Shown here: in pieces, positions 4,567 to 58,662 of the stretch
How positions within the stretch are numbered: position 1 is the first letter of the stretch
How the letters are laid out: every line of letters begins with the position of its first letter
Source of the DNA: an uncultured Planctomycetales bacterium
GTDB taxonomy: Bacteria > Omnitrophota > Gorgyraeia > Zapsychrales > JANLHA01
Assembly (NCBI GenBank): GCA_964474085.1
Contig: CAYYRJ010000006.1
Coordinates: forward strand, 29,514-93,513
Length of the DNA: 64,000 nucleotides
Direction: 5' to 3'
Notes under the pieces: model-generated
The model's database searches: none
What the model was told of the DNA's origin: nothing
What the model saw: only the letters and a program-made list of their open reading frames with translations
Position numbers and translations under genes: made by a program

Positions 4567-7410
4567 ATGTTAAAAAAGTTTATTTTAGTCCTGCTTCTTT
4601 TTCTTCAGATTCTCTTGTGCCCCTCGAAGGTTCATGCCGAGTATGAAAGTATCTATAATTATTATATAGAGCTTGGTTTGGACGCTCTGTATGAAAAAAA
4701 GTTCGAGGATGCGATTTTTTATTTCAAAACGGCGCATGCCATTGACCCTTCCCGTGATAAAGCGCGCGAGTATATCAATCTCTCCAAACGTCTTAAAGAT
4801 GAACAATTAAATGGCATTGTTGCAAAATCACCGACGGATAGTTCTTGGATTTCTCTCGAAGGCCCTGATCCAGTAAAAAATACCGACACAGAGCTTTCTC
4901 ATACTGTGGCTCAACAAATGTTGCGATCTAAAATTCCCCAAGGAAGTGTTGTTCGTCCAGTCGTTAAATATGATCCTAAAGCTCCTCTTGTTAAACAAAA
5001 AAAACTTCCTGGCGCTATTATTCCATCTGGAGTGCAAACTAATTCTCTCGAGTTGCGTGATGCGCAGGAGCTGAAACTCGATGATGTGCTTTGGAGTAAA
5101 CATACAAACTTGATTTTAGAGTTGAAAGTTGATGAGAGTGTTATTTTAGTTGGTAACAATATTCAGAGATATCTTTCTGTCACAGAAGGAATATTAGAAG
5201 TATCCCGCATCAACCCGGATCGTATTAAACTTAAAGGTCTAAAGCGCGGCAATACAATTTTTTACGTTTGGGACCAAAAAGGCCGATGGATTTTTAATGT
5301 CCACTGCATCTATACCTCTGCCTCGGAACTTGCAAAATTACAAAAGCTTCAGGAGTCAGACGCACAGTTATTTAAGCTTGAGTATAGCAATAACTGGAGT
5401 ACTCTTCATAGTGGACAAAATTTAGGAAGTATGACCCGCAAATATTTAAACTTTACAAACTGGCTTGGAGTTTTTGGCGACACGCCTTACGGTAAGTTTG
5501 ATGCAGCGGTAAATACTTATATGTATCCTAATTCTACCGAGATTGTCGGGCAAACAATCGGGTTAAGCAATGGACACGTAGGACCTTTTAATGACTTTTC
5601 GCTGCGTGGTTATGACGCCTATACAGGTCTTACGAGTTTGACATTACCGGGTCGATATTTTAGAGGGGTACTTTTAGACGCGTATGCTTTTAAACATCGG
5701 TTGGCTTATTCATATTTTCATGGCCAGGATCAGTCGACAGTGATCTTTTTGGGTTCTGGGGCGAGACAGACAAGGCAGTCATATATTGAAGGCGGTAAAT
5801 TGACATTAAATCCCTACCAACCGACGAATTATTCCTTGAATTATGTTCGTGGTTGGGGGGAAGGAAGGCCTGAGGATTTTGTTAAACGGGTTATTTCAGG
5901 TCAGGTTGAGCATAAAAGAAAAGAAATCCGGCTTGTCGGAGAACTCGCGTCGGATGATAAACATTATGCAAGTACTATCGCATCCTCTTTTGAACGGTCG
6001 AATTTTAAGATGAATTTGAATTTGCGCGATATCGAAAAAGGATATCAGACGATTTATGGGCCGGCAAATGGAACAGGACAAGTCGGAACGCTGTTAAATT
6101 ATTTTTGGAATCCCTCGGGGATGGATATTTCTGGTTATTTAGATATTTATCGTGATCGCAGTTTGCCAAATCCGGACAACCCGCATGGTCTTAATTTTGA
6201 TTGGTCGAATTCTTATAATAAGCAATTGGATCATTTGTCGCAATGGGGGATAAATTTTGCGTATACAAATAACTCGCAAACTGTTTCGCCGCGACAAAAT
6301 GCGCAGTTAGGTGGCATGTATTCAAAGACTTTTGAATTAGGTCGCTTTAGAACAATTTCGCTTTTTTCTGGACCGACGATTCAATGGAGTCGTTATAAGG
6401 ACACGCCAACTGCAGACTTTGATCGCTATAATTTGCGCAGCGGGTTTCGTGCGAATTTGATCCAGAATTTGTCTTACTTTTTTACTTACGACTATATTTG
6501 GGTTCGTGATGTTGCGCGCGAGCAATTCTCGAATCCTGCAACGCTTGATACTGGTTTTTATTATCATTTTAAATTAACAGACGAACTTTATTTAACGTCG
6601 GATATTTCTTATCACCGAGAGAAATTTACATCAAGTCCGTTTGGATTTTTGTCTGGGCAAGATAATGTTTCAAATAGTTTAAGTTTGACTTATCACCCAC
6701 AACCTGGAATAGAAATTTATTTAGATAGTCAATTAAGGCATGTCATGCCACAAAATAATCGGTCATTTGACGAATTATATTTAACAACAGGAATGAAAGG
6801 TTCGTGGGATTTGCCTTTCAAATGGAATCCTTTGGGGGAAATCCGCGGAATTGTCTATAAAGATTATAACGGTAATGCAACTCAGGATGAAGGAGAGCCT
6901 GGAATTTATGGGATAAAGGTTTTGGCCGGTCATTGGGAAACATATACGAATGATAATGGCGAGTATTTGCTGACCGTACGGGCCAAGAAAGTTGCCGTGA
7001 GTTTGGATTTGCGAACAGTACCTCAGGGTTTTGTTTTTTCAACAGCGCTTTCGCGGGACGTTGAAATTCAAAACAATAAAGCTAAAGTCGTAAATTTTGG
7101 TCTGACGGCTAGATCTGGAATTTATGGAGTTGCCTATTTTGATGTGAACGGGGATGGTATGCCAAATCTAGGGGATAAATTTTTGGGTAATGTTGTTGTC
7201 CGTTTAGTCGATACCGGAGAGATAACCAAAACAGACGCCAGCGGTTCTTACTTTTTTGAAAACATTGACCCGGGGAAACACAAAATTCGAATTTCAATCG
7301 GCTCGATTCCAAAAGAATATCTGCCGGCCGTTAAGGTCGAGGACGAGGTTGAAGTCGTAGAAGGAATAACCTACGTTTATAACATTCCGGTCAAACTTAA
7401 AAAACCTTAA
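4567..7410 (+). CDS. Large (about 947 aa) outer-membrane-type protein: signal peptide, TPR-like segment, pilus-formation N-terminal-like (CpaC/RcpA N) segment, central aromatic/Asn-rich beta-barrel-like region and two C-terminal Cna-B/carboxypeptidase-regulatory-like beta-sandwich repeats
   Basis: The signal peptide starts at the ATG at 4567 (MLKKFILVLLLFLQILLCPSKVHA). The segment SVILVGNNIQRYLSVTEGILEVSRINPDRIKLKGLKRGNTIFYVWDQKGRW resembles the T2SS/T3SS pilus N domain. Alternating hydrophobic beta-strand patterns are rich in Y/W/N/S/T. The C-terminal repeats include GIVYKDYNGNATQDEGEPGIYGIKVL and GVAYFDVNGDGMPNLGDKFLGNVVVRL. Confidence 0.55.
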   Translation: MLKKFILVLLLFLQILLCPSKVHAEYESIYNYYIELGLDALYEKKFEDAIFYFKTAHAIDPSRDKAREYINLSKRLKDEQLNGIVAKSPTDSSWISLEGPDPVKNTDTELSHTVAQQMLRSKIPQGSVVRPVVKYDPKAPLVKQKKLPGAIIPSGVQTNSLELRDAQELKLDDVLWSKHTNLILELKVDESVILVGNNIQRYLSVTEGILEVSRINPDRIKLKGLKRGNTIFYVWDQKGRWIFNVHCIYTSASELAKLQKLQESDAQLFKLEYSNNWSTLHSGQNLGSMTRKYLNFTNWLGVFGDTPYGKFDAAVNTYMYPNSTEIVGQTIGLSNGHVGPFNDFSLRGYDAYTGLTSLTLPGRYFRGVLLDAYAFKHRLAYSYFHGQDQSTVIFLGSGARQTRQSYIEGGKLTLNPYQPTNYSLNYVRGWGEGRPEDFVKRVISGQVEHKRKEIRLVGELASDDKHYASTIASSFERSNFKMNLNLRDIEKGYQTIYGPANGTGQVGTLLNYFWNPSGMDISGYLDIYRDRSLPNPDNPHGLNFDWSNSYNKQLDHLSQWGINFAYTNNSQTVSPRQNAQLGGMYSKTFELGRFRTISLFSGPTIQWSRYKDTPTADFDRYNLRSGFRANLIQNLSYFFTYDYIWVRDVAREQFSNPATLDTGFYYHFKLTDELYLTSDISYHREKFTSSPFGFLSGQDNVSNSLSLTYHPQPGIEIYLDSQLRHVMPQNNRSFDELYLTTGMKGSWDLPFKWNPLGEIRGIVYKDYNGNATQDEGEPGIYGIKVLAGHWETYTNDNGEYLLTVRAKKVAVSLDLRTVPQGFVFSTALSRDVEIQNNKAKVVNFGLTARSGIYGVAYFDVNGDGMPNLGDKFLGNVVVRLVDTGEITKTDASGSYFFENIDPGKHKIRISIGSIPKEYLPAVKVEDEVEVVEGITYVYNIPVKLKKP

Positions 7411-7420
7411 TCTAAATCGT

Positions 7421-7714
7421 TTATTTGACAACTAAAGTCCTTAAAACGATTTGTTGATGCTCGCGTACGGTATTGATCGAAGTAAAATTTGTTTCCGAAT
7501 TACTAAAAACTTCATCTGTTGAATTTGCTCCTAGATTTGTCCCCAAAAGCGCATTATTTGCCTTGAGTTGACTGTCGACGTTTAGGCCGATAATCGGTGG
7601 AATATAGACCGAAAGTCTAAACTCTTGGGTAAATGTTCCCCCTGCATAGCAGATTGCTGTTACCAGAATGCTTTGGGCCAAAATGGTGAAGAAGATGAGT
7701 ATCCATCTTTTCAT
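7421..7714 (-). CDS. Small secreted protein of 97 aa
   Basis: Signal peptide MKRWILIFFTILAQSILVTAICYAGG. It lies divergent from the cluster above and is preceded on its own strand by a terminator hairpin. Confidence 0.45.
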   Translation of the reverse strand: MKRWILIFFTILAQSILVTAICYAGGTFTQEFRLSVYIPPIIGLNVDSQLKANNALLGTNLGANSTDEVFSNSETNFTSINTVREHQQIVLRTLVVK

Positions 7715-33744: not shown

Positions 33745-34509
33745 ATGCGTCTTTTAAGTTGGAATGTTAACGGCATTCGCGCCAGTGAAAAAAAAGGTTT
33801 TCTTGCCTGGCTGGCCAAAGAATCTCCGGAAATTCTCTGCCTTCAAGAAACCAAATGTCATCCTTCGCAGTTAGGCGAAAACTTACTTAAGCCCGACGGG
33901 TACAAAACATTTTGGTCTGCTGCCGAAAAAAGCGGTTACAGCGGGGTTGCGGTTTATTCCAAAAAAGAACCTCTGGTCGTCGAAGACGGCATTGGCGTCA
34001 AAGAATTTGACAGTGAAGGCCGGACACTGATGCTCGAGTATGATGACTTTGTCTTGTTTAATATTTATTTTCCCAATGGCGGTGCGGGCAATAAACGTGT
34101 GCCGTTTAAGATGGCCTTTTATGATGCTTTTTTAAATCGCGTCGAAAAACTTCGCAAAGCGGGTAAAAAAATTATTATTTGCGGCGATGTCAACACCGCG
34201 CACGAAGAAATTGATTTAGCGCGGCCAAAAGAAAATCAGAAAAATACCGGTTTTTTACCTGAGGAACGGGAGTGGGTGACAAAATTTTTGAAACACGGTT
34301 ACGTGGACACGTTCCGGCATTTTAAAAAAGACGGCGGGCATTACAGCTGGTGGGATTATAAGACCGGTGCTAGGGCGCGAAATGTCGGCTGGCGGATTGA
34401 TTATTTTTTTGTCAGCGAAAATTTACTGCCCCAACTTAAGAGTGCGTTTATATTAAGTGAAGTTATGGGCTCTGACCATTGTCCGGTGGGGATTGCAATT
34501 ATTTCGTAG
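33745..34509 (+). CDS. xth: Exodeoxyribonuclease III
   Basis: LSWNVNGIRA N-terminus, QETK, and a C-terminal SDHCPV. Confidence 0.9.
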   Translation: MRLLSWNVNGIRASEKKGFLAWLAKESPEILCLQETKCHPSQLGENLLKPDGYKTFWSAAEKSGYSGVAVYSKKEPLVVEDGIGVKEFDSEGRTLMLEYDDFVLFNIYFPNGGAGNKRVPFKMAFYDAFLNRVEKLRKAGKKIIICGDVNTAHEEIDLARPKENQKNTGFLPEEREWVTKFLKHGYVDTFRHFKKDGGHYSWWDYKTGARARNVGWRIDYFFVSENLLPQLKSAFILSEVMGSDHCPVGIAIIS

Positions 34510-34625
34510 GGGCGTATTGAATACCGTACGGGCACAATATTTATTTCGTAGGGGCGTATTGAATACCGTACGGGCACAATGTTTATTCCGTAGGGGCGTA
34601 TTGCAATACGCCCCTACAACGAATT
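34501..34625 (+). repeat. Tandem repeat: two 42-bp units (TTTCGTAGGGGCGTATTGAATACCGTACGGGCACAATRTTTA) plus a third unit carrying the perfect 28-bp palindrome GTAGGGGCGTATTGCAATACGCCCCTAC (34590-34617)
   Basis: The first unit overlaps the last codons and TAG stop of xth. The palindrome recurs at 37719-37746. Confidence 0.85.
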
Positions 34626-34627
34626 AT

Positions 34628-37600
34628 ATGAAAAAAATTTTAATTATTTTTTTGTTTTTCCTTCTTCTCACCATCCCCGCGTTTGCTAATAATTTGACCA
34701 TCAGCAATGTCACGATCGAAGACCGAAACGCGTCGGCCAACACCATGGTTGTGCAGTTTAATATCAGTTGGGACCACAGCTGGCGAAAGCCGGATGGCCG
34801 GCATGATGCGGCGTGGGTTTTCGTCAAACTCTACCAAAACTCGACCGCTCCGTGGATACACGGCAAGCTTTATACCGCAGGAACAAATCCTGCTGGCACA
34901 TCGCCGGGCACCAATTCAGATTTAAAAATTGTTGTCCCATCGGACAAGATCGGCGCCTTTATTTCAAGAACAGCGACGGGTAATGGGACGTTTTCGTCCC
35001 AAAAGGTGCGGATGGTCGTCGATTACGGCACAAGCGGCTTGGCCGATACCGACACCGTCACCGCCAAAGTTTTTGGCGTTGAAATGACCTATGTTCCCGA
35101 AGGGCCGTTTTATATCGGCGGTGACACACATGACCTCAACGAAACGGTGGGTGTGCTATATCAGGGTGCTGATGCATTTGTTTCTGTTTTTAATTCAGGT
35201 GGGACTTTTCAATGGTCTAGGCGTTTAGGAGGAACAAGTGACGATAGTGGCAACGGCCTTGGGAAGGACAGCAGTAACAATATTATTGTTGTGGGGGCCA
35301 TTATTCGTAACGCGGATTTAAACGGTGATGGAGATACTGCAGATAGCAGTGAAAGCACGGGTGGAGTATATTCGGATAGTGACGCATTTATTTCTGTCTT
35401 TAATTCCGCAGGGACTTTCCAATGGTCAAGGCGAATCGGGGGGACTGGTAGCGATTTTGGCAACGGTATCACTATAAATAGTGCTAACAATCTTTTCGAA
35501 GTGGGACTTGTTAGCGGCAACGCGGACTTAAACGGGGATGGAGATACCTCTGACAGTAATGAAAGTACGGGTGGGGTTTATAGTAGCAACGATGCCTTTA
35601 TTTCAGTATTTAATTCAGCTGGAACCTTTCAATGGTCAGAGCGTTTGGGTGGGACGGGTAGCGATTATGGCAACGCTATCACTACGGACAGTAGCAATCG
35701 TATTATTCTAACGGGTCGAGTCAGTGGCAGCGCTGACTTAAATGGGGACGGCGATACCGCGGATACCAGTGAAAGCACAGGCGGAGTGTATTCAACTAAC
35801 GATGCGTTTATTTCCGTTTTTAATTCGTCTGGCACTTTTCAATGGGCAAAGCGCTTAGGAGGGACGGCGAGCGATAATGGTTATGCTCTGACTACGGATA
35901 GTTTTAATAATGTTGTCTTTTCAGGGTTGGTGAATGGTAATGTGGATTTAAACGGCGATGGAGATACTGCCGATACTAATGAAGCGAGCGGGGGGGTCTA
36001 TTCAGCAAACGATGCGGTTATTTCAGTTTTTAATTCTTCTGGGACTTTTCAGTGGTCAAAGCGTCTTGGGGGGACGACTGCCGATTCTGGTTATGCGCTT
36101 ACTGCAGACAGTGTTAATAAGATTATCGTGGTGGGGCAAGTTTTTGGTAACGCAGATTTAAATGGGGACGGCGATACCGCGGATACTAGTGAAAGCACAG
36201 GCGGGGTGTATTCAACTAGCGATGCGTTTATTTCTGTTTTTAGTTCAGATGGGACTTTTCAATGGGCTAAACGTTTGGGAGGAACAGATACAGATGAGAG
36301 CAACGCAGTCACTACGGACAGTGCCAATAATGTTATTATATCTGGGGATATTACCGGTAACGCAGATTTGAATGGAGATGGCGATACTAACGATACAAAT
36401 GAAACCGGCACATTCGGTGTAAACGATTCATTTGTCTCGGTTTTTAATTCGGCTGGTACTTTTCAATGGTCTAAGAGGTTAGGTGGGACAGGTGCTGATA
36501 TAGGATACGGCATTGTCGCCGATAATAATAATATCATCAGCACAGGATATGTTACTGGTAGTGCAGATTTAAACGGCGATGGGGGGTGGAATCTTAATTA
36601 TGCTTTTTATCAAAGCGGGTATGAAGATGAACCGGTACAAATTACGACGACGGGTAAAGCGATTACGGTCAACACAAATTCTTGTGACGATATTGACAGC
36701 TCACCGGTGACGGTTACCGGATTAGCAGGTGTTACCGGCAATACGTCGTGGCCAAATGGTTATGCGGCTAGTTATATGATGAAGTATGAGCTCACTCAAG
36801 GGCAGTATAAAGATTTTCTTAACAGTTTAACGCGAGCTCAACAGATTAATCGGGTGCAGGCGACGATTTCAGGGAATACAATTACCAATTATTATGTTAT
36901 GGCGGATACCACTTCGGTCACTGGTCGGCAAGGAATTCGTGCACCGGCTTCGGGAAACGGGACAACAGCACCAGTTGTTTTTGGTTGTGATTTAAACGGA
37001 AACGGAACATTTGATGAAAGTGACGACGGGCTTGGGATCGGAATGAATTATATAAATTGGATGGATTATAGCGCTTACGCGGATTGGGCTGGTTTGCGTC
37101 CAATAACCGATTTAGAATACGAAAAATCGTGCCGCGGATCTAATAGCGCAGTGTATGGTGAATACGCGTGGGGGACAACAACCATTACACAAGCGCAAGG
37201 CCCGGGACTTAATTTAGGCCGTGGCAATGAAGTGGCGAGCACTGCAGGCTTGGGGTTAGCTAATTACGACGGAAGTGGAACAGATATGAGCGGTCCTTTT
37301 CGCGTTGGTTTTGCGGCGACGAATGCAACGAATCGTATCAGCGCCGGTGCAGGATATTATGGAGCGATGGAGTTAACCGGAAATGTTGATGAGTTCGCGG
37401 TGCCTTTAGGAAATTCGTCAGCGAGAGCTTTTCAGGGCACTCATGGCGATGGGACATTGACTAGTACGACAACGTATGAAGGCAATGCCACAAATAACGA
37501 TTGGTTGGGAATTAATGCCACAACGGCACGGGGCGTTACCGGAGATGGTGTCGGGTCTGCTCATTCTGCAACTTATCTGGGAGGAAGCTGGAGCGCGGTA

Positions 37601-37711
37601 ACAACGGTATCTTTCGGAAGTGTGACGGGGAGAACTTATTGCATTGGGTTTGGTTTAACGCGGAGATATTCTTCTGCCTCGGGCGGCCGCTTTGCCCGCA
37701 CCGCGCCGTAA
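34628..37711 (+). CDS. Secreted SBBP beta-propeller repeat protein with a C-terminal FGE-sulfatase (SUMF1)-like domain
   Basis: The signal peptide starts at the ATG at 34628 (MKKILIIFLFFLLLTIPAFA). About 8 repeats of about 63 aa follow (DAFISVFNSAGTFQWSKRLGGTGSD ... NADLNGDGDTAD ...), the SBBP repeat pattern. The C-terminal MMKYELTQGQYKDFL and YADWAGLRPITDLEYE blocks are FGE-like; the canonical FGE Cys pair is not evident. Confidence 0.7.
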   Translation: MKKILIIFLFFLLLTIPAFANNLTISNVTIEDRNASANTMVVQFNISWDHSWRKPDGRHDAAWVFVKLYQNSTAPWIHGKLYTAGTNPAGTSPGTNSDLKIVVPSDKIGAFISRTATGNGTFSSQKVRMVVDYGTSGLADTDTVTAKVFGVEMTYVPEGPFYIGGDTHDLNETVGVLYQGADAFVSVFNSGGTFQWSRRLGGTSDDSGNGLGKDSSNNIIVVGAIIRNADLNGDGDTADSSESTGGVYSDSDAFISVFNSAGTFQWSRRIGGTGSDFGNGITINSANNLFEVGLVSGNADLNGDGDTSDSNESTGGVYSSNDAFISVFNSAGTFQWSERLGGTGSDYGNAITTDSSNRIILTGRVSGSADLNGDGDTADTSESTGGVYSTNDAFISVFNSSGTFQWAKRLGGTASDNGYALTTDSFNNVVFSGLVNGNVDLNGDGDTADTNEASGGVYSANDAVISVFNSSGTFQWSKRLGGTTADSGYALTADSVNKIIVVGQVFGNADLNGDGDTADTSESTGGVYSTSDAFISVFSSDGTFQWAKRLGGTDTDESNAVTTDSANNVIISGDITGNADLNGDGDTNDTNETGTFGVNDSFVSVFNSAGTFQWSKRLGGTGADIGYGIVADNNNIISTGYVTGSADLNGDGGWNLNYAFYQSGYEDEPVQITTTGKAITVNTNSCDDIDSSPVTVTGLAGVTGNTSWPNGYAASYMMKYELTQGQYKDFLNSLTRAQQINRVQATISGNTITNYYVMADTTSVTGRQGIRAPASGNGTTAPVVFGCDLNGNGTFDESDDGLGIGMNYINWMDYSAYADWAGLRPITDLEYEKSCRGSNSAVYGEYAWGTTTITQAQGPGLNLGRGNEVASTAGLGLANYDGSGTDMSGPFRVGFAATNATNRISAGAGYYGAMELTGNVDEFAVPLGNSSARAFQGTHGDGTLTSTTTYEGNATNNDWLGINATTARGVTGDGVGSAHSATYLGGSWSAVTTVSFGSVTGRTYCIGFGLTRRYSSASGGRFARTAP

Positions 37712-37714
37712 AAG

Positions 37715-37750
37715 AGATCCGTAGGGGCGTATGGCAATACGCCCCTACAC
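37715..37750 (+). repeat. Palindrome CCGTAGGGGCGTATGGCAATACGCCCCTACA just after the SBBP gene stop (a second copy of the 34590 palindrome; likely terminator or REP)
   Basis: 28 of 29 identical to the upstream copy; a perfect inverted repeat. Confidence 0.8.
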
Positions 37751-37770
37751 AATCCACGATTTATTTCTTT

Positions 37771-38550
37771 ATGGACATTGATTCCTTACCCTATTTTGCC
37801 AAGCAATGCGCTGAGCTTATTAAAAAAGCCAAGCGCATCGTTGTTCTCTCAGGAGCTGGCATTTCGACAAATGCGGGAATCCCAGACTTTCGCGGGCCCC
37901 GCGGACTTTATGTCACCAAACAGTACGATGCGGAAAAAGTTTTTGACATTGATTATTTTGCCCGCGACCCAAAACCTTTTTATGACTTTGCGCGTGACTT
38001 TATCCAACTTGACGAACAGATTTCCCCGACGAGTACGCACAAATTTTTTGCCAAGCTTGAAGCATCCGGCAAAAAGGTTGATATCATAACCCAAAACATT
38101 GATGGTTTGCATCAGCGCGCAGGTTCCAAAAATGTTTATGAACTGCACGGCAGTTTTGAAAAAAGTTTTTGCCGTGACTGTCAAAAAATGTTTTCGTTTC
38201 TCGAGTTAAAAGAAAAAATACAAACGCAGGTTGTGCCGATCTGTGAATGCGGGGGAGTTTTAAAGCCAGCGATTGTTTTCTTCGCAGAAGAAGTTCAATA
38301 TTTCACTGCAGCAGTTGAGCTTGCTAAAGCGTCTGATCTTTTTTTTGTTGTTGGAACAAGTTGCGTGGTTCACCCGGCGGCGCAAATCCCGACCTTTGCA
38401 ACGGGCGATATCGTCGTCGTTAATAAAGGAAAGGTCGATCTTGAGCTTGACACAATAACGCTGCGCGTCAACGCGGACACTGACGAGTTTTTTGAAATGG
38501 TGGGTCAAAAAGTTTGTATTGTTCCTTCTCCCCGTCGGGGAGAAGGTTAG
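37771..38550 (+). CDS. cobB: NAD-dependent protein deacylase, Sir2 family
   Basis: GAGISTNAGIPDFRGP signature, Zn-ribbon Cys pairs (CRDC ... CECGG), and QNIDGLH. The start was chosen at the ATG at 37771; the ORF-track start at 37639 reads through the palindrome. Confidence 0.85.
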   Translation: MDIDSLPYFAKQCAELIKKAKRIVVLSGAGISTNAGIPDFRGPRGLYVTKQYDAEKVFDIDYFARDPKPFYDFARDFIQLDEQISPTSTHKFFAKLEASGKKVDIITQNIDGLHQRAGSKNVYELHGSFEKSFCRDCQKMFSFLELKEKIQTQVVPICECGGVLKPAIVFFAEEVQYFTAAVELAKASDLFFVVGTSCVVHPAAQIPTFATGDIVVVNKGKVDLELDTITLRVNADTDEFFEMVGQKVCIVPSPRRGEG

Positions 38551-52529: not shown

Positions 52530-53753
52530 TTGGAGCTTTTTGTTTCGCACGTTATAATGCCCGTCATGAAACCGATTACGTCAAGAAGCGCAAAACGCAT
52601 CATTCTCCAAAATGCCACACCGGCAAGAATAGTCAGCGTGGCTTTAACACAATCGCCCGGAAAAATTATCGCTGAAAATATTTTTGCGGATTCTGACCAG
52701 CCTTCTGCGGACAAAAGTGCAGTTGACGGGATTGCGATTTCCTTTAACGCGTGGAAAAAGGGAAGACTTCAATTTTTAATTAAAGGTATGCAGAAGGCTG
52801 GAATCGCCCCCAAAGTTTTGTTTAAGCCAGAACATTGTTTTGAAATCATGACTGGCGCAGTTATTCCCAAACACTGCGACTGCGTGATTCCTGTCGAAAA
52901 CGTCAAAATTGTAAAGGCCACAGCAACACTTAAGCCTGATTTAAAAATCTTTAAAGGGCAATTTATTCGTAAACAAGCCAGTGAATACAAAAAGAATGAG
53001 CGGCTTATTGCCTTCGGGACAAAAATAAATAGCACCCACATTGCGGTTTGTGCGTCAACCGGCAAGCGGCAGTTGAACGTTTTTTCACCCAAAATCGCCT
53101 TAATCGGGACAGGAGACGAGCTAATCGCTATTGACAAAAAACCGCAATCGTATCAGTCGCGTCGGTCCAATACGTATGCCCTCGAAACTCTCTTGTGTTC
53201 GCAAGGCTTTAGCGACGTGAAAAAGTTTCATTTCAATGACAATTTTTCAGTAATAAAAAAGAATTTGAGCCGTGTCCTTCTGGACTTTGACGTTGTGATT
53301 TTAAGCGGGGGAGTGTCGATGGGCAAATTTGATTTTGTTCCCGGAGTTTTAAACGAACTTCAGGTGAAAACCTTGTTTCATAAGGTCAGCCAAAAGCCGG
53401 GCAAGCCGCTTTTGTTTGCAAAAACACACGACGGCAAAGCTGTTTTTGGCTTGCCGGGCAATCCGGTCTCAACCTTGGTGTGTGCGGTGTATTATGTCTT
53501 GCCCTTTCTCTACAAGAAATGCGGCGTGCGAATCAAAGATCGAGCTGTCAGATTAGCAAAATCAATCCGTCAAAACTCAAACTTAACTTTGTTTGTGCCC
53601 GTAACTTTTAATGCCACCGCATCAGCACTGCCCGTCAAACTTAGCAGTTCGGGTAATTTTAGGGCGTTAACAGCGTCGGAAGGGTTCATTGAAGTCCCGC
53701 CAGGCACGGGGAGTTTAGAAAAAGGGAAAGAGGCAAAGTTTTTTTCATGGTAA
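52530..53753 (+). CDS. moeA: Molybdopterin molybdenumtransferase MoeA
   Basis: [19 protein letters not shown] and GLPGNPVS blocks. The exact start is uncertain. Confidence 0.75.
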
Positions 53754-54349
53754 ATTTACGCCCACCAATTTTTGGCCTTGTCCTAACCGGCGGCAAAAGC
53801 ACACGGATGAAAAAAGATAAATCGTCTTTAAAGTTTCACAATAAACCGCAGGCGATCTGTGCGTTTGAGCTTCTCTTGCCGTTGTGTGAAAAAGTTTTTA
53901 TCTCTCGGCGCAAAGGGCAAAAAATGGTTGCAAGAGAGAGCAAACTGCCGCACATTTATGATTTGAAAAAATTAAGCGACCGCGGCCCTTTGTCAGGCAT
54001 ACTTTCAGCGATGGCAAAATTTCCGAAAGCCGCGTGGCTTATCCTCGCGTGCGATTTGCCGTTTGTCGACGATAAAACGTTGCGACATCTCTTGCGTTAC
54101 CGCGACAGTACAAAAATCGCCACCGCTTACAAAAGCCGCTTTAATGATTTGCCGGAACCGTTGTGCGCGATTTATGAGCCCAAAGCACAGAGACGGTTAT
54201 TAACTTTCTTTGCAAAAGGCATAACTTGTCCGCGCAAAATTTTGATCAACTCGAAGGTGCGTTTGTTGAAGTTAAAAAACAAAAAGGCTTTGGACAACAT
54301 CAACACGCCGGAGGAATACCAAAAGGCAGTAAGTTTTTTAAAACCTTAG
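53747..54349 (+). CDS. mobA: Molybdenum cofactor guanylyltransferase MobA
   Basis: GLVLTGGKSTRM N-terminal motif; about 200 aa. Confidence 0.7.
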   Translation: MVNLRPPIFGLVLTGGKSTRMKKDKSSLKFHNKPQAICAFELLLPLCEKVFISRRKGQKMVARESKLPHIYDLKKLSDRGPLSGILSAMAKFPKAAWLILACDLPFVDDKTLRHLLRYRDSTKIATAYKSRFNDLPEPLCAIYEPKAQRRLLTFFAKGITCPRKILINSKVRLLKLKNKKALDNINTPEEYQKAVSFLKP

Positions 54350-54362
54350 CTGGAGCTTTTTT

Positions 54363-55436
54363 ATGCCAAACAGTGTGCAAAAAGAAACAAGTCCCTACAA
54401 AATTTTGTTGTCCCAAGTTCGCGAAACTCTCATTGCCGGACAAGCGCGTATCGAAGAAGAAAAGGTGCGGACCTATTGGCAGACGGGCGCGCATATTAAC
54501 AAACATATTTTAAAATATTCAAAGAAACCAGAATATGGGGCACAGATTCTCGCACGTTTGGCGCCTGACCTTAAAGTCGACAAAAATACATTGTACGATT
54601 GTCTAAAATTTGCCCGGACGTACCCAATTTTAAGCGGCCGCTTAAAATTCAAATGGTCGCATTTTCGTGAGTTAATTACAATTTCCGACGAGAGTGAGCG
54701 CAAACGTTTGGAAGAGCAGATCAAACGCAACGCTTGGACGAGCGATGAGCTTATTGCTCGCATTCATGCCCAAAAACCAGCGGCTTCCAAAAATCTTTCT
54801 CAAATTGTGGTTGAAAATCCAGTGAAAGAAAAACTTTTAACACCTTTGCGCGGAGAGCTGTTTACCTACAAAATCATCGAGCGTCCCAGCGTCAGCACTC
54901 CAACCCAAAAAGTTTTGTTGCTGGATTTGGGGTTTGGGATTTTTCGCAATCTCGACAGCCGCGTTATTTCACAATTTAAGTCCGGCGACATTGTCTGTTC
55001 AAAACCGACAGAGGATGCTTATAAATTTACGACGAAAGCCGACACATCCAAAAACGATCTTTATACCTATGAGGCGATTGTTGAAAAGATTATCGACGGA
55101 GACACTTTGAAAGTCCGCATTGACTTAGGATTTGACACCTGGAAAGACGAAACTTTGCGCCTGCGGGGAATCGATTGCCCGGAAATAGACACCCCCGAAG
55201 GGCAAGCCGCCAAGACTTTTGTACAGTCTTATATTAAGCAAGCTGACCGCATTCTCATACGCAGCAGCCGTGATGACAAGTATGGCCGCTATTTAGCAGA
55301 TGTCTTTGTTCCCCCTCTTTTGTTAAAGAGGGGGCTAGGGGGAGTTCAAGGGGAAAGTACGGACTCCACGAATTCTCAGGCCAGCATTTATTTGAATAAC
55401 TTGTTGTTACAAAACGGCCACGCTGTAAGAATGTAA
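54363..55436 (+). CDS. Two-domain protein: YhcG-family (DUF1016) N-terminal domain fused to a staphylococcal-nuclease-like (SNase/thermonuclease) domain
   Basis: The N-terminal KWSHFRELITISDESERKRLEE...AWTSDELIARI matches the YhcG N-domain (LSWSHY...W..REL). The C-terminal GDTLKVRIDLG...LRLRGIDCPE..TPEGQAAK...DKYGRYLADVFV matches the SNase pattern (GDT.V...RL.GID.PE....G..A.....D.YGR.LA.V). Confidence 0.55.
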   Translation: MPNSVQKETSPYKILLSQVRETLIAGQARIEEEKVRTYWQTGAHINKHILKYSKKPEYGAQILARLAPDLKVDKNTLYDCLKFARTYPILSGRLKFKWSHFRELITISDESERKRLEEQIKRNAWTSDELIARIHAQKPAASKNLSQIVVENPVKEKLLTPLRGELFTYKIIERPSVSTPTQKVLLLDLGFGIFRNLDSRVISQFKSGDIVCSKPTEDAYKFTTKADTSKNDLYTYEAIVEKIIDGDTLKVRIDLGFDTWKDETLRLRGIDCPEIDTPEGQAAKTFVQSYIKQADRILIRSSRDDKYGRYLADVFVPPLLLKRGLGGVQGESTDSTNSQASIYLNNLLLQNGHAVRM

Positions 55437-55460
55437 ATTTAAGAAATATTTTCGTAGGCA

Positions 55461-56429
55461 ATGGTCACGACCGTTGCTTCTACGAGCAAGAAAGGATTAC
55501 AGGTAAATTCTAATATGAAATTCAATTCAAAATCGAATGATGAGTTTATTTCATCCATACATAATGAATTTAATTTTCTCGTCGTTGAGTATGGATTTGA
55601 AAGAATAATTGAGGCTCCATTTTTAACTTATCGAAATGGCAATTTGGGAGTGTTTGTTGACATATCTCGACAAGAAACTGTATCGCCATATATCCAAGTG
55701 GGGTACTTCTCGAAGGAATATCCATCTCTATGGAAACTTGGTAAACAGTGCTCACTACTTTCATTTATTGAACTTAAGAAACCTCAGATTAATACGGATA
55801 GTATGCTTAGAAAGTTTAATAGGATGAAGCCCATCGATTTATTCAAAGAAGGAGCTACTTTGTTGAAAGAATTTATTGGGGATATTCTTTCGAAAGGACC
55901 AGAGGCGTTAGAAGAGGTTAAGAGATTTGAACATGAGAAGTATCTTACAAGGACTGATGCCAATATAAATGAGGATTTTGAAAGAACGATTTCAACGGCT
56001 TTGGAACGATTTAAAGAAAGAGATTTTGAAGCTGTCGTCTTTCATCTTAGTGAACATGAGAATATACTTTCGCCGCAAGTGGTAGCGATTTTTAAATACG
56101 CAAAAGAATTTATTAAGTCCCAATCGACGGATCAACCGTTAACAAAAGAAGAAATAGCACTTTTAAAACCAGTTGAACATCTTATGTTCAAAACAATCCA
56201 CATCCAATACTTCGCTATTTTAAGAGAACAAAGGGGAGTCAGTGAAGAAACTTTCACGACTAACCTAAAAACTGCACAGGAACTTTATGCATTGATAGAT
56301 TCACTCTATTTTTTTAGCCTGACACCGGACATGGTTCGCGTCGCAATCAACAACGAATTTTGCCCTTGGGAAACCATCCTAAAGTCAGGCGACCACGTCG
56401 TTTTTATCCCGCCTGTTGCCGGCGGTTAA
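55461..56429 (+). CDS. Fusion of an unknown roughly 240-aa N-terminal domain to a C-terminal MoaD/ThiS-like beta-grasp sulfur-carrier domain ending in GG
   Basis: The last 80 aa (IHIQYFAILREQRG...KSGDHVVFIPPVAGG) are MoaD-like with a terminal Gly-Gly. The upstream 720 bp are markedly AT-rich yet contain no stop codons, arguing for translation. An internal in-frame ATG at 56184 could give stand-alone MoaD. Confidence 0.5.
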   Translation: MVTTVASTSKKGLQVNSNMKFNSKSNDEFISSIHNEFNFLVVEYGFERIIEAPFLTYRNGNLGVFVDISRQETVSPYIQVGYFSKEYPSLWKLGKQCSLLSFIELKKPQINTDSMLRKFNRMKPIDLFKEGATLLKEFIGDILSKGPEALEEVKRFEHEKYLTRTDANINEDFERTISTALERFKERDFEAVVFHLSEHENILSPQVVAIFKYAKEFIKSQSTDQPLTKEEIALLKPVEHLMFKTIHIQYFAILREQRGVSEETFTTNLKTAQELYALIDSLYFFSLTPDMVRVAINNEFCPWETILKSGDHVVFIPPVAGG

Positions 56430-56481
56430 TCGCATAACAAACGGTTGCGGGCACAAAAACTTTTTGCTATACTCTGGCCTT

Positions 56482-56778
56482 ATGAATTCTTATTTTCTTT
56501 TAGTGTTTTTTGCTTTTTGGGCCAATGTGCCGCTGGGTTATTTTCGAGAGAATACAAAAAAGTTTTCGTTTGCATGGTTTTTTTTCGTTCATGCCTCGAT
56601 CCCATTTATTATTCTTTTACGTCTTAAATTGCATATTTCCCCATGGTTTATTCCCGTTTCGATTTTGGCTGCGATTATGGGACAATTGACAGGCAGCCGG
56701 TTACGACAAATTAAATCCCTTAATATCTCTTTGTTAAAACAGTTCGCAAAGCGACGGGGATCAACCAAGGAGCATTAA
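56482..56778 (+). CDS. Small integral membrane protein (possible AtpZ/AtpI-like atp operon leader gene)
   Basis: Three predicted TM helices, immediately upstream of the atp operon. The ORF track starts at 56416 but overlaps the previous gene. Confidence 0.35.
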   Translation: MNSYFLLVFFAFWANVPLGYFRENTKKFSFAWFFFVHASIPFIILLRLKLHISPWFIPVSILAAIMGQLTGSRLRQIKSLNISLLKQFAKRRGSTKEH

Positions 56779-57092
56779 TGGTTATCGATGACATTGTGAT
56801 TTTGACGTTCGGTGCGTTTTTATTTTTGGGTGCGTTTTTTGGCTTAAGAGCTGGGAGCAAAGTTTCATTGATTATGGGTGTCGTGTCCGGCAGTTTGATC
56901 CTCGCGGGGGATGGGATTGCGTATTTTAACAAAAGGGCCGGCCTGTTGTTTCTGATGATCGTCTCCGGACTTTTAGTTGTCAGTTTTGTCCAGAGAACCC
57001 TTAAGACCCAAAAAATGATGCCCGCCGGGATGCTATTAATTGTGAGTAGCTTGTTTTTTGGGTACATAATCGTTCGATTTCTGAACACTTGA
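56778..57092 (+). CDS. Small integral membrane protein (possible AtpI-like)
   Basis: 104 aa, 3-4 hydrophobic helices, start/stop coupled to atpB. Confidence 0.35.
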   Translation: MVIDDIVILTFGAFLFLGAFFGLRAGSKVSLIMGVVSGSLILAGDGIAYFNKRAGLLFLMIVSGLLVVSFVQRTLKTQKMMPAGMLLIVSSLFFGYIIVRFLNT

Positions 57093-57878
57093 TTGTTTAT
57101 GAGCCAGCCTTCGACAGAACCGTTTGATCTGACGCAATATATCATGCACCACGTGCAAAATAGCAGCACGTGGAATTTGCCGTTTGGTCAGCCGTTTAAT
57201 CTGCCAAATTTCTTGTCTTTGCACAGTTTAATGCTAATATTAGGGGCCTTTTTTTTGCTTATTTTATTTTGTGTATTTTACCGCAAGAATGAGGTTGTTC
57301 CGACGGGAATCACGAACATGCTCGAGGCGTTTGTCGTGTTTATTCGGGACAAGATCGCCATTAATAATCTTGGGGAAGAAGACGGAAAAAAATTTACCCC
57401 TTATTTTTGTACGCTCTTTTTCTTTATTCTTATTTTGAACCTGATGGGAAAAATCCCTCTGTTTGCCTGTGCGACAGCCAATATCAATGTGACGGCGGCG
57501 CTGGCGTTGATTACGTTTTCTTTTATGACGTTTGGCGCGATTAAACGAAATGGGCTCGTCGGATATTTTCGTTCATTTGTCATCCCGGGGCTGCCTTTAC
57601 CAATGCTTTTTTTGGTTGTCCCGCTTGAAATTTTGGGGATTTTTACCCGGACCTTTGCTTTAGCCGTCCGTTTGTTTGCCAACATGATCGCCGGACACAT
57701 GATGACTCTCGCATTTTTGGGCCTCGTGGCTTTGTTCGGCTGGTTGTTGACTCCTGCGGCTCTGTTGTTTGCGCTTTTTATCGGATTGTTAGAAATTTTG
57801 GTTGTTTTTTTGCAAGCTTATATTTTTACTTTGTTGTCAGCGATTTTTATTGGCCAAGTTTATCATCCAAAACATTAA
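57093..57878 (+). CDS. atpB: ATP synthase F0 subunit a
   Basis: LAVRLFANMIAGHMM signature with the essential Arg. TTG at 57093, or the ATG at 57099. Confidence 0.9.
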   Translation: MFMSQPSTEPFDLTQYIMHHVQNSSTWNLPFGQPFNLPNFLSLHSLMLILGAFFLLILFCVFYRKNEVVPTGITNMLEAFVVFIRDKIAINNLGEEDGKKFTPYFCTLFFFILILNLMGKIPLFACATANINVTAALALITFSFMTFGAIKRNGLVGYFRSFVIPGLPLPMLFLVVPLEILGIFTRTFALAVRLFANMIAGHMMTLAFLGLVALFGWLLTPAALLFALFIGLLEILVVFLQAYIFTLLSAIFIGQVYHPKH

Positions 57879-57897
57879 TCACAAAAAAGGAGTTAAA

Positions 57898-58104
57898 ATG
57901 AACGGTTCAATAGCTCTCATCGGTGCCGGATTGGCTGCCATCGGCGGCGGAATCGGTATTGGTTTAATCGGTTCAAGCGCTTTGTCGGGGATTGCCCGCC
58001 AGCCGGAAGCAGAAAACATCCTTAGCCGCAACATGATTCTTGCGATCGCTTTCGTCGAATTACCTGTTCTTGCGGCAATCGTTTTTTGTACCTTTGTCAA
58101 ATAA
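57898..58104 (+). CDS. atpE: ATP synthase F0 subunit c
   Basis: 68-aa hairpin protein with a GxGxGxG helix and conserved Glu (AFVELPVLAAIVF). AAGGAG RBS. The ORF-track 57802 start is too early. Confidence 0.9.
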   Translation: MNGSIALIGAGLAAIGGGIGIGLIGSSALSGIARQPEAENILSRNMILAIAFVELPVLAAIVFCTFVK

Positions 58105-58116
58105 CAAGGATAAATT

Positions 58117-58662
58117 ATGTCTCAAACTGCAACGACACAAGAACCTTCTGCGCATGGCAGCGAAACTCATGGAGCTTCGCCGTCATTGTTAGCTCCCGAA
58201 ATCCAGGTTGTATTATTGACCTGGGTGACGTTTTTTGTGCTTTTTACGATTTTGTCAAAATTCGCCTGGAAACCAATTCTCGCCGGATTACAGGCCCGCG
58301 AGGACAATATCCGCAAGGCCGTCGATGAAGCCACCAAAACCCGCGAAGAATATAAACTTCTCGGCGAAAAACGTCACAAAATTCTTTCAGAAGCGGATGC
58401 AAGCGCCAAAGAATTTATGAATCAGGCGCGGCAAACGGCGCTTAAAACAGCTAAGGTTATTGAAGAGCGCGTCGCACAAGAAGCGGTCATTATGGTCGAG
58501 AACGCCCGTCGGGAAATCGATGCCGAGCAGGAAAAAGCCGCAGTCTACTTGCGCGAAAAAAGTGCGGATACGGCGGTGGCTTTAGCGACCAAGATTTTGC
58601 AGGAAAAGCTCGATACCAAAAACCACAAAGAGCTTGTGGACCGGTTGATTGAGGAGATTTAA
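58117..58662 (+). CDS. atpF: ATP synthase F0 subunit b
   Basis: Single N-terminal TM then a long charged helix, at the expected position in the operon. Confidence 0.75.
   Translation: MSQTATTQEPSAHGSETHGASPSLLAPEIQVVLLTWVTFFVLFTILSKFAWKPILAGLQAREDNIRKAVDEATKTREEYKLLGEKRHKILSEADASAKEFMNQARQTALKTAKVIEERVAQEAVIMVENARREIDAEQEKAAVYLREKSADTAVALATKILQEKLDTKNHKELVDRLIEEI

Follow-up and report, generated by a model that had tools for sequence, protein, structure and literature searches.

An AT-rich orphan gene in frame with moaD: a probable young fusion in the molybdenum cofactor operon of an uncultured bacterium

We analysed an unusual open reading frame (ORF) in a stretch of 64,000 nucleotides from an uncultured Planctomycetales bacterium, placed by GTDB in the Omnitrophota (contig CAYYRJ010000006.1 of assembly GCA_964474085.1, positions 29,514–93,513 of the forward strand). 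This whole stretch is referred to as the window, and all coordinates are given relative to it. The ORF (55461–56429, + strand) has an ATG start and codes for a 322-residue protein with the C-terminus ...IPPVAGG, the stop codon being located at 56427–56429. It joins an N-terminal domain without annotation, which we call X, to MoaD, the sulfur-carrier subunit of molybdopterin (MPT) synthase, and is termed X::moaD. On balance, X::moaD is probably a young read-through fusion made by insertion and not a designed two-domain machine.

According to this explanation, a lineage of the Planctomycetes–Verrucomicrobia–Chlamydiae (PVC) group would carry the molybdenum cofactor (Moco) genes moeA, mobA and moaD ahead of the atp operon, with the gap between mobA and moaD serving as a slot in which single foreign genes come and go. 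In the window, this slot would have taken two cargoes, a DUF1016_N-SNase nuclease gene and, downstream of it, X. The X unit would have been inserted in frame and without a stop codon between the nuclease stop and the moaD ATG. The operon may be read as one transcript from moeA, and ribosomes starting at 55461 would run via a linker of about 20 residues into MoaD. MoaD would keep its role as the sulfur carrier of MPT synthase within the fusion, because its GG end is free and because it accepts large domains at its N-terminus, as is seen in the MobA::MoaD proteins of relatives; free MoaD may also be produced from the retained ATG at 56184. X itself would serve a separate purpose outside Moco synthesis, perhaps in conflict or defence like the remaining cargoes.

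The fused reading frame and its MoaD domain

The region upstream of moaD is set apart by its composition. The 723 nt from 55461 to 56183 have a GC content of 34.9% and a GC content at third codon positions (GC3) of 29.9%, compared with 43.9% GC for the window and GC3 values of 45–54% in the neighbouring genes. The initial annotation had noted a long AT-rich frame in phase with moaD and had considered it unlikely to be open by chance. Both statements are borne out: none of 20,000 shuffled versions of the 723 nt remained open, and the five alternative frames of the stretch contain 4–32 stop codons each. The nuclease gene (44.5% GC) and moaD (43.1% GC) have a native-like composition, so that foreign composition is confined to approximately 55440–56180.

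Homology to a related locus (L001) and low GC content define the inserted unit (55437–56180, + strand), which is about 740 bp long and consists of a short leader and a stopless ORF. The homology between window and L001 starts about 22–24 nt before the ATG and continues up to ...GTTGAACAT, immediately ahead of the moaD ATG. The X domain proper comprises residues 1–222 (55461–56126, + strand); residues 223–241 (STDQPLTKEEIALLKPVEHL; 56127–56183, + strand) form a linker, which is likewise stopless.

Uninterrupted X::moaD frames were found in further assemblies. The protein of L001, a 5-kb contig (Logan SRR22012221), has 322 residues and 93% amino acid identity to that of the window. L018 (Logan DRR274959) encodes 328 residues; relative to the window there are two substitutions, and six residues are duplicated in frame. 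A third case is P0182, from an 8.2-kb NCBI contig, and the window's own fusion protein is on record as a 100% identical match on a 95-kb NCBI contig. A stop codon or frameshift between two genes that is hidden by an assembly or sequencing error would be conceivable in a metagenome-type assembly of an uncultured organism. However, the frame is open in at least four independent assemblies (window, P0182, L001 and L018) despite 3–56 nucleotide differences, which makes such an artefact extremely improbable. No stop codon separates X from moaD in any X-bearing relative; those without X have a free-standing moaD of 81–83 codons.

The C-terminal part of the protein (Met-242 to Gly-322; 56184–56429 including the stop codon, + strand) represents the ancestral moaD gene, as revealed by Pfam, NCBIfam and synteny. 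The MoaD-like domain with a free GG terminus that had been proposed initially is confirmed by a full-length match of residues 248–322 to Pfam ThiS (PF02597; E = 1.1e-15, 58.3 bits with a cutoff of 22.5, model positions 1–76 of 76). NCBIfam moaD (TIGR01682) matches residues 246–322 with E = 4.6e-16 and 59.4 bits, which is below its equivalog cutoff of 66.15; orthology is therefore argued from the moeA-mobA synteny and from the stand-alone moaD genes of relatives. Only MoaD/ThiS models of NCBIfam match the full-length protein, all within residues 246–322. Its orthologues are the stand-alone MoaD proteins of 81–83 residues in three related loci (L011, L020 and L022) and, in a fourth (L009), the C-terminal part of MobA::MoaD. 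The domain is under purifying selection, with a dN/dS of 0.19 between window and L001 and conservation of the GG end. Thus, the window copy resembles ordinary MoaD in its full-model match, its GG end and its position after moeA-mobA, but differs in having a foreign N-terminal extension of 241 residues and in the lack of moaE and moeB nearby.

In an alignment of the moaD 5' regions of seven loci, ATG 56184 (Met-242) is invariant, and the similarity to loci without X restarts 3–6 nt upstream of it. For these two reasons we consider Met-242 to be the ancestral moaD start. The earlier suggestion that this internal ATG could serve as a second start is thus credible.

Natural N-terminal passengers of MoaD occur in relatives, where P0002–P0010 combine PF12804 with PF02597 (also represented by L008 and L009). 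These MobA::MoaD fusions are 274–306 residues long (e.g. P0002 of L009 and P0004 of L008), and share with X::moaD the C-terminal MoaD, the free GG and the locus. In contrast to X, their partner domain is an enzyme of the same pathway, and the fusion is old and widespread; in the window, MobA is separate and the partner is a recent, unrelated orphan.

A slot for foreign genes between mobA and moaD

In the window, the genes for ResB and CcsA are followed by those for DUF481 and MscL on the opposite strand, and then by moeA, mobA, the DUF1016_N/SNase gene, X::moaD, an atpI-like gene, a Tmemb_14 gene and atpBEFHAG. The left border of the slot is mobA (53747–54349, + strand), which encodes a stand-alone Moco guanylyltransferase of 200 residues (Pfam NTP_transf_3, E = 7e-26). 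The first cargo is a gene for 357 residues (54363–55436, + strand) with the Pfam domains DUF1016_N (E = 2.8e-14) and SNase (E = 1.5e-7). DUF1016/YhcG proteins have a PDDEXK-type nuclease domain. The protein matches PADLOC family PDC-S02 (E = 5e-18) with residues 15–137 only, its C-terminal half being the SNase domain, and also matches the endonuclease family phrog_452 of PHROGs (E = 1.6e-28). The second cargo is X.

Comparison of six related loci revealed different contents of this slot. In L022 (‘Candidatus Omnitrophica’, 69% MobA identity) it consists of only 100 nt, followed by a moaD of 81 codons. L020 (79% MobA identity) carries a gene for a 295-residue FRG-domain protein (6637–7524 of that contig), which matches PADLOC PDC-S15 (E = 7e-44) and PHROG 4962 and is separated by a non-coding gap of 264 nt from a moaD of 81 codons. 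In L011, from an ‘uncultured Planctomycetales’ metagenome-assembled genome (84% MobA identity), the same DUF1016_N/SNase gene as in the window is followed by a moaD of 83 codons, with six nucleotides (‘AAGGTA’) between the nuclease stop and moaD. L018 (94% MobA identity) has the SNase gene and X::moaD like the window, while in L001, where mobA lies off the contig, a different gene is located directly before X::moaD. L009 (groundwater metagenome, 53% MobA identity) has no slot but a fused mobA::moaD of 296 codons.

From these loci, the slot appears to behave as a small cargo or defence islet, the two identifiable cargoes matching phage-defence candidates of PADLOC, the nuclease with its N-terminal domain only. 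It resembles the defence islets found between core genes in its fixed position and in holding different single genes in each relative. It differs in that it lies within a cofactor operon, that one cargo is fused to the downstream core gene, and that X matches no defence family. The initial annotation had proposed acquisition of the whole segment from 54.3 to 56.4 kb. The sequence between mobA and moaD does appear to have been acquired horizontally, the slot being empty in L022 and holding other cargo in L020 and L011. The proposed limits are too wide, as only about 55.44–56.18 kb is foreign in composition and moaD is native to the locus.

Two simpler relationships between the parts were considered. 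The SNase nuclease does not have X as an obligate partner or as its immunity protein: the nuclease occurs without X in L011, and in L001 X is preceded by a different gene. The synteny with L009 suggested that an insertion of 1.8 kb might have divided a MobA::MoaD fusion gene into the mobA and moaD of the window. What weakens this idea is that the nearer relatives L022, L020 and L011 have separate mobA and moaD genes with their own ATG codons. The window MobA has 53% identity to the MobA half of P0002; all MobA relatives with at least 60% identity are stand-alone proteins of about 200 residues, and fused forms are found only at 60% identity or less.

The age of the insertion was assessed by synonymous (dS) and non-synonymous (dN) divergence, using Nei–Gojobori estimates. 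Between window and L001, X has 96.8% nucleotide identity and a dS of 0.066, compared with 0.445 for the adjacent moaD and values from 1.5 to saturation for atpB, atpF and atpH. The synonymous contrast between X and moaD is significant (Fisher test, p = 8e-6). Between window and L011, the nuclease gene has a dS of 0.72, and moeA and mobA have values of 1.2–1.4; hemA shows a dS of about 2 between L001 and L011. Overall, dS ranges from 1.2 to 3 in the atp, moeA and mobA genes. Between window and L018, the flanking genes have a dS of 0.06–0.26, and a single synonymous difference was found in X::moaD where at least 12 are expected.

The cargo phylogeny disagrees with that of the flanks. AtpB of the window is 97% identical to that of L020 but only 60–69% to those of L001 and L011, and AtpF behaves similarly (96% versus 78–80%). 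The ranking is opposite for MoaD, with 84–88% identity to L001 and L011 and 73% to L020. This mosaic, extending over 53747–58662, suggests putative breakpoints of recombination that separate the atp operon from the Moco genes. The comparison of the loci shows an apparent exchange of the slot together with moaD that is more frequent than that of the surrounding genes. Because of the low dS and high identity of X relative to saturated housekeeping genes, its low GC3 and the mosaic structure of the locus, we infer that X was acquired by recent horizontal gene transfer and has moved between lineages.

The X family and the question of ubiquitin-like conjugation

The orthologue in L001 was the only match to the N-terminal part in an initial k-mer-based search. 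An exhaustive phmmer search with residues 1–245 detected P0011 (209 residues, 36% identity, E = 1e-28; query residues 16–219 aligned to target residues 6–206) and P0013 (201 residues), and a profile search extended the family to 52 clusters, nearly all of which are stand-alone proteins of 197–209 residues. Where the source gives a name, it is ‘hypothetical protein’. None of the 52 clusters contains a Pfam domain except for the ThiS domain of the fusion P0001; single scans of window X, P0011, P0013 and 46 members had no Pfam match. Profile searches with X gave no match in PADLOC, PHROGs or the PDB sequences, tblastn did not detect X on plasmids or phages, and a scan of JGI metagenomes revealed no further copies.

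Residues 16 to about 222 of window X align across the whole family, and share with it the motif EFxFLxxEYGFE, a conserved Cys and a C-terminal helix pair with HExxLS. The window copy is a divergent member (23–36% identity) that differs from the others (P0011 and P0013–P0061) by its AT-rich composition, an additional insert at residues 70–90 approximately, and the missing stop codon. The alignments show that the family members, including P0011, P0013 and most others aligned, end at window residue 221–224 approximately. For this reason residues 223–241 are considered an extra linker, and window X a gene without a stop: the stop at about 200–210 residues that is usual in the family is missing, and reading runs on into moaD. 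Downstream of the P0011 stop, no counterpart of the linker was found.

Members of the family occur mainly on high-GC metagenome contigs from soil and sediment, one of them with Planctomycete-type neighbours. The contexts of four members (L002–L007, L014–L017) are unrelated to each other, with runs of small accessory genes, a neighbouring PIN/Phd pair or Planctomycete-type PSD/PSCyt proteins. No genes for ubiquitin-like proteins (Ubl), E1 or JAB were found near these four. Our best guess, based on the company of X in the slot, is that it has an accessory role or one in conflict, with no link to Moco.

Two other sequences of the family may be mentioned. P0012, a metagenome sequence of 61 residues, has 79% identity to X residues 94–153, with indels and divergent ends, and looks like an AT-rich X copy that has decayed in another assembly. 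P0017 (ENA, 346 residues) carries a C-terminal extension of about 140 residues, which contains hydrophobic and apparently membrane-spanning segments, and is a second case of reading on in this family.

AlphaFold models were obtained for window X (predicted local distance difference test score, pLDDT, 71) and for the mainstream member P0025 (pLDDT 90.6). In both predictions, an N-terminal helix and a meander of four strands are combined with a basic, disordered loop and a C-terminal half of five helices; in the linker, the pLDDT of the AlphaFold2 model drops to 63–44. Foldseek searches of the PDB with both models, and a Foldseek search of BFVD, gave no significant match.

A GG-ending Ubl domain fused to another protein had led to the proposal of a self-contained module for Ubl conjugation or sulfur transfer. 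Prokaryotic operons for Ubl conjugation, which combine a Ubl with E1, E2 and JAB proteins, were reportedly described by Iyer, Burroughs and Aravind in 2006. X::moaD resembles these systems in the fusion of a GG-ending beta-grasp to another domain and, superficially, in the alpha-beta4-alpha arrangement predicted for the X family, which is reminiscent of E2. It differs from them in that scans of the window revealed no genes for E1, E2 or JAB, and that the beta-grasp is a housekeeping MoaD. The proposal was thus not upheld. MoaD occupies the conserved position moeA-mobA-slot-moaD-(hemA)-atp, the X-family contexts described above lack Ubl, E1 and JAB genes, and no ThiF/MoeB (E1), JAMM/JAB or MoaE domain was detected by Pfam among the ORFs of at least 120 residues in the window. 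Likewise, MoaE, MoaA and MoaC were absent from these Pfam scans and from a tblastn search of the window with the proteins of L008.

The E2 question was pursued at the level of structure, as about 30 of the top 50 PDB hits of the P0025 model by Foldseek are E2 ubiquitin-conjugating enzymes. None of these hits is significant. The best has an E-value of 0.13, with template modelling (TM) scores not exceeding 0.27 and a root-mean-square deviation of about 10 Å, which is chance level, and hhalign against UbcH5b gave a probability of 0.1%. The Cys present in at least 90% of the family members (Cys-97 in the window) was considered as a catalytic residue following an HPN-type loop. In the model it is located in a beta-strand, however, and it is a Ser in P0011, the closest homologue. 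Because the defining neighbours and the E2 fold were tested and not found, the fusion is not regarded as a member of the prokaryotic Ubl-conjugation systems. In the literature we found nothing specific to the X::moaD architecture.

These data also bear on the view that the fusion as such is selected, either because X secures its retention by providing the start of translation for an essential gene, or because it gains a function when tethered to a thiocarboxylate/Ubl carrier (e.g. in an E2-like reaction with the Ubl or in sulfur delivery). Apart from the E2 hits and the conserved Cys, it could draw on the X–moaD junction, which is the same to the nucleotide across moaD genes that are 13% divergent while X spread recently between these lineages, and on the sweep-like pattern of an X::moaD far less diverged than its flanks between window and L018. 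What speaks against it is the chance level of the E2 similarity, the position and replacement of the Cys, and a family that is nearly always stand-alone in unrelated contexts, together with the housekeeping position of moaD in a window without E1 or JAMM among the ORFs scanned. We consider selection of the fusion improbable. The more specific version appears slightly less probable still. In it, X would act either by addiction via an essential cofactor gene, or as a highly diverged UBC/RWD-like domain drawing in cis on the thiocarboxylate or Ubl of the tethered MoaD; the latter would be an E2-like/Ubl or sulfur-delivery device in a single polypeptide, which spreads horizontally through a defence-type slot. 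The evidence for X as a working protein is moderate, that for selection of the fusion as such is weak. We found no evidence for a new mechanism; the oddity is well explained as an orphan gene fused to a housekeeping moaD.

Selection, the junction and the surrounding locus

X is probably under purifying selection, judged from the substitutions between window and L001. The ratio dN/dS is 0.36, with 9.5 synonymous and 13.5 non-synonymous changes, and the synonymous excess has a p-value of 0.012–0.035 in binomial tests. The sole indel seen in X is in frame.

This bears on a further explanation, which regards X as a passenger that is decaying or has no function. In this case free MoaD from ATG 56184 would be all that matters, and the 322-residue product would be irrelevant read-through. 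The ancestral ATG is kept in every allele, and internal initiation is plausible, as the stand-alone moaD genes of the relatives L020 and L022 also lack a Shine–Dalgarno sequence. The P0012 fragment suggests that copies decay elsewhere, and the upstream cargo gene of L018 is already frameshifted at its 3' end. Set against this are the synonymous excess, an indel length that is a multiple of three, the open frame in four of four alleles, and the burial of the ATG in a hairpin in the window and in L018. We consider the passenger explanation unlikely, though less so than selection of the fusion.

Several observations weigh against a young fusion made by insertion whose X part is a working protein. 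The estimate of selection on X rests on 23 substitutions, and the absence of stop codons among these is expected in 28% of cases by chance. ATG 56184 is not preceded by a Shine–Dalgarno sequence, and a perfect 7-bp hairpin (TGAACAT-CTT-ATGTTCA; 56177–56193, TGAACATCTTATGTTCA) encloses it in the window and in L018. By its predicted pairing, this hairpin could lower internal initiation at 56184; L001 has no hairpin around the moaD ATG (CATCCTATGCCC). MoaE, MoeB, MoaA and MoaC would be encoded outside the window, so that a complete Moco pathway in the genome is an assumption. That lineages whose moaD genes are 13% divergent share the identical X–moaD junction does not sit easily with one insertion and subsequent homologous exchange of the ordinary kind; this may point to insertion at a specific site or to selection of precisely this junction. 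Finally, neither target duplications nor terminal repeats above chance were found around the X unit or around the whole slot.

An integron cassette was considered as the origin of the X unit and rejected. An attC-like pair, GATCAAC...GTTGAAC (56131–56173), folds only weakly (z-score of −1.0 to −1.2 in L001) and is replaced by alternative hairpins in the window, and the empty sites of L011, L020 and L022 disagree with the position of crossover. No integrase was found among the window ORFs scanned; attC was judged without a dedicated model.

The nuclease gene of the window contains a 57-nt in-frame insertion (55311–55367; ...PPLLLKRGLGGVQGESTDSTNSQAS...) whose first nucleotides form a perfect palindrome of 10 bp, CCCCCTCTTT-TGTT-AAAGAGGGGG. 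The window, L018 and P0188 contain the insertion, L011 and P0189 do not; it is single-copy in the window and may represent a small hairpin element that has entered the coding sequence. The nuclease gene of L018 is frameshifted near its 3' end (1880–2000 of that contig), and encodes 381 residues with an altered C-terminus overlapping the start of X. X of L018 contains an 18-nt tandem duplication (2450–2490), by which TDANIN occurs twice. As these cases illustrate, the cargo genes are evolving quickly.

Upstream of the slot, moeA (52530–53753, + strand) encodes a molybdopterin molybdenumtransferase with the Pfam domains MoeA_N, MoCF_biosynth and MoeA_C. The ORF is listed from TTG 52530; its true start is probably located a few codons further downstream. 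With mobA it shares an overlap of 7 nt, as in L009, L011, L020 and L022. No promoter- or terminator-like sites were called on the + strand between mobA and the moaD stop, and neither a Moco riboswitch nor a tRNA was found near the slot.

Downstream of the moaD stop, the window shares 45 nt in nearly identical form with L001 and L011 despite a different next gene (atpI-like versus hemA). This conserved flank contains the sequence TTGCGG-17 nt-TATACT (56445–56473, + strand), a possible promoter of the next gene, which was missed by a consensus scan because its −35 element matches in only three of six positions. The atpI-like gene (56484–56778, + strand) encodes a small membrane protein homologous to proteins of 85 residues (L001) and 82 residues (L011) encoded upstream of atpB. 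It is followed by the Tmemb_14 gene (56778–57092; Pfam), located before the atp operon. A Tmemb_14 gene precedes atpB also in L018, L020 and L022, while L001 and L011 lack it at this position. The gene hemA, encoding glutamyl-tRNA reductase, follows moaD in L001, L009, L011 and L022, and is missing in the window, L018 and L020.

Two features elsewhere in the window deserve mention. The sole Rfam match is a c-di-GMP-I riboswitch aptamer (RF01051; 7799–7926, − strand), which scores 39.8 bits and is above the gathering score. A SIR2-family protein (37639–38550; E = 6e-51) adjoins a protein of 1084 residues (34457–37711) with beta-propeller repeats, a stretch similar to the helix-turn-helix of BsuBI/PstI restriction endonucleases and an FGE-sulfatase domain; the two may be another conflict-related pair.

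X::moaD is a modest case. For annotation, it carries the warning that the combination of an unannotated domain with a GG-ending MoaD/Ubl need not be a conjugation system. If the fusion as such were selected, it would exemplify how a mobile gene ensures its own maintenance via a host gene that is essential. With the favoured explanation of a young read-through fusion, the six related loci would show the stepwise birth of a multidomain protein, from an empty slot via a first cargo and a stopless second cargo to a fusion with an essential sulfur-carrier gene. The analysis documents what appears to be a horizontally exchanged cargo slot inside the Moco operon of an uncultured PVC-group lineage, and it puts an unannotated family of proteins of about 200 residues on the map.

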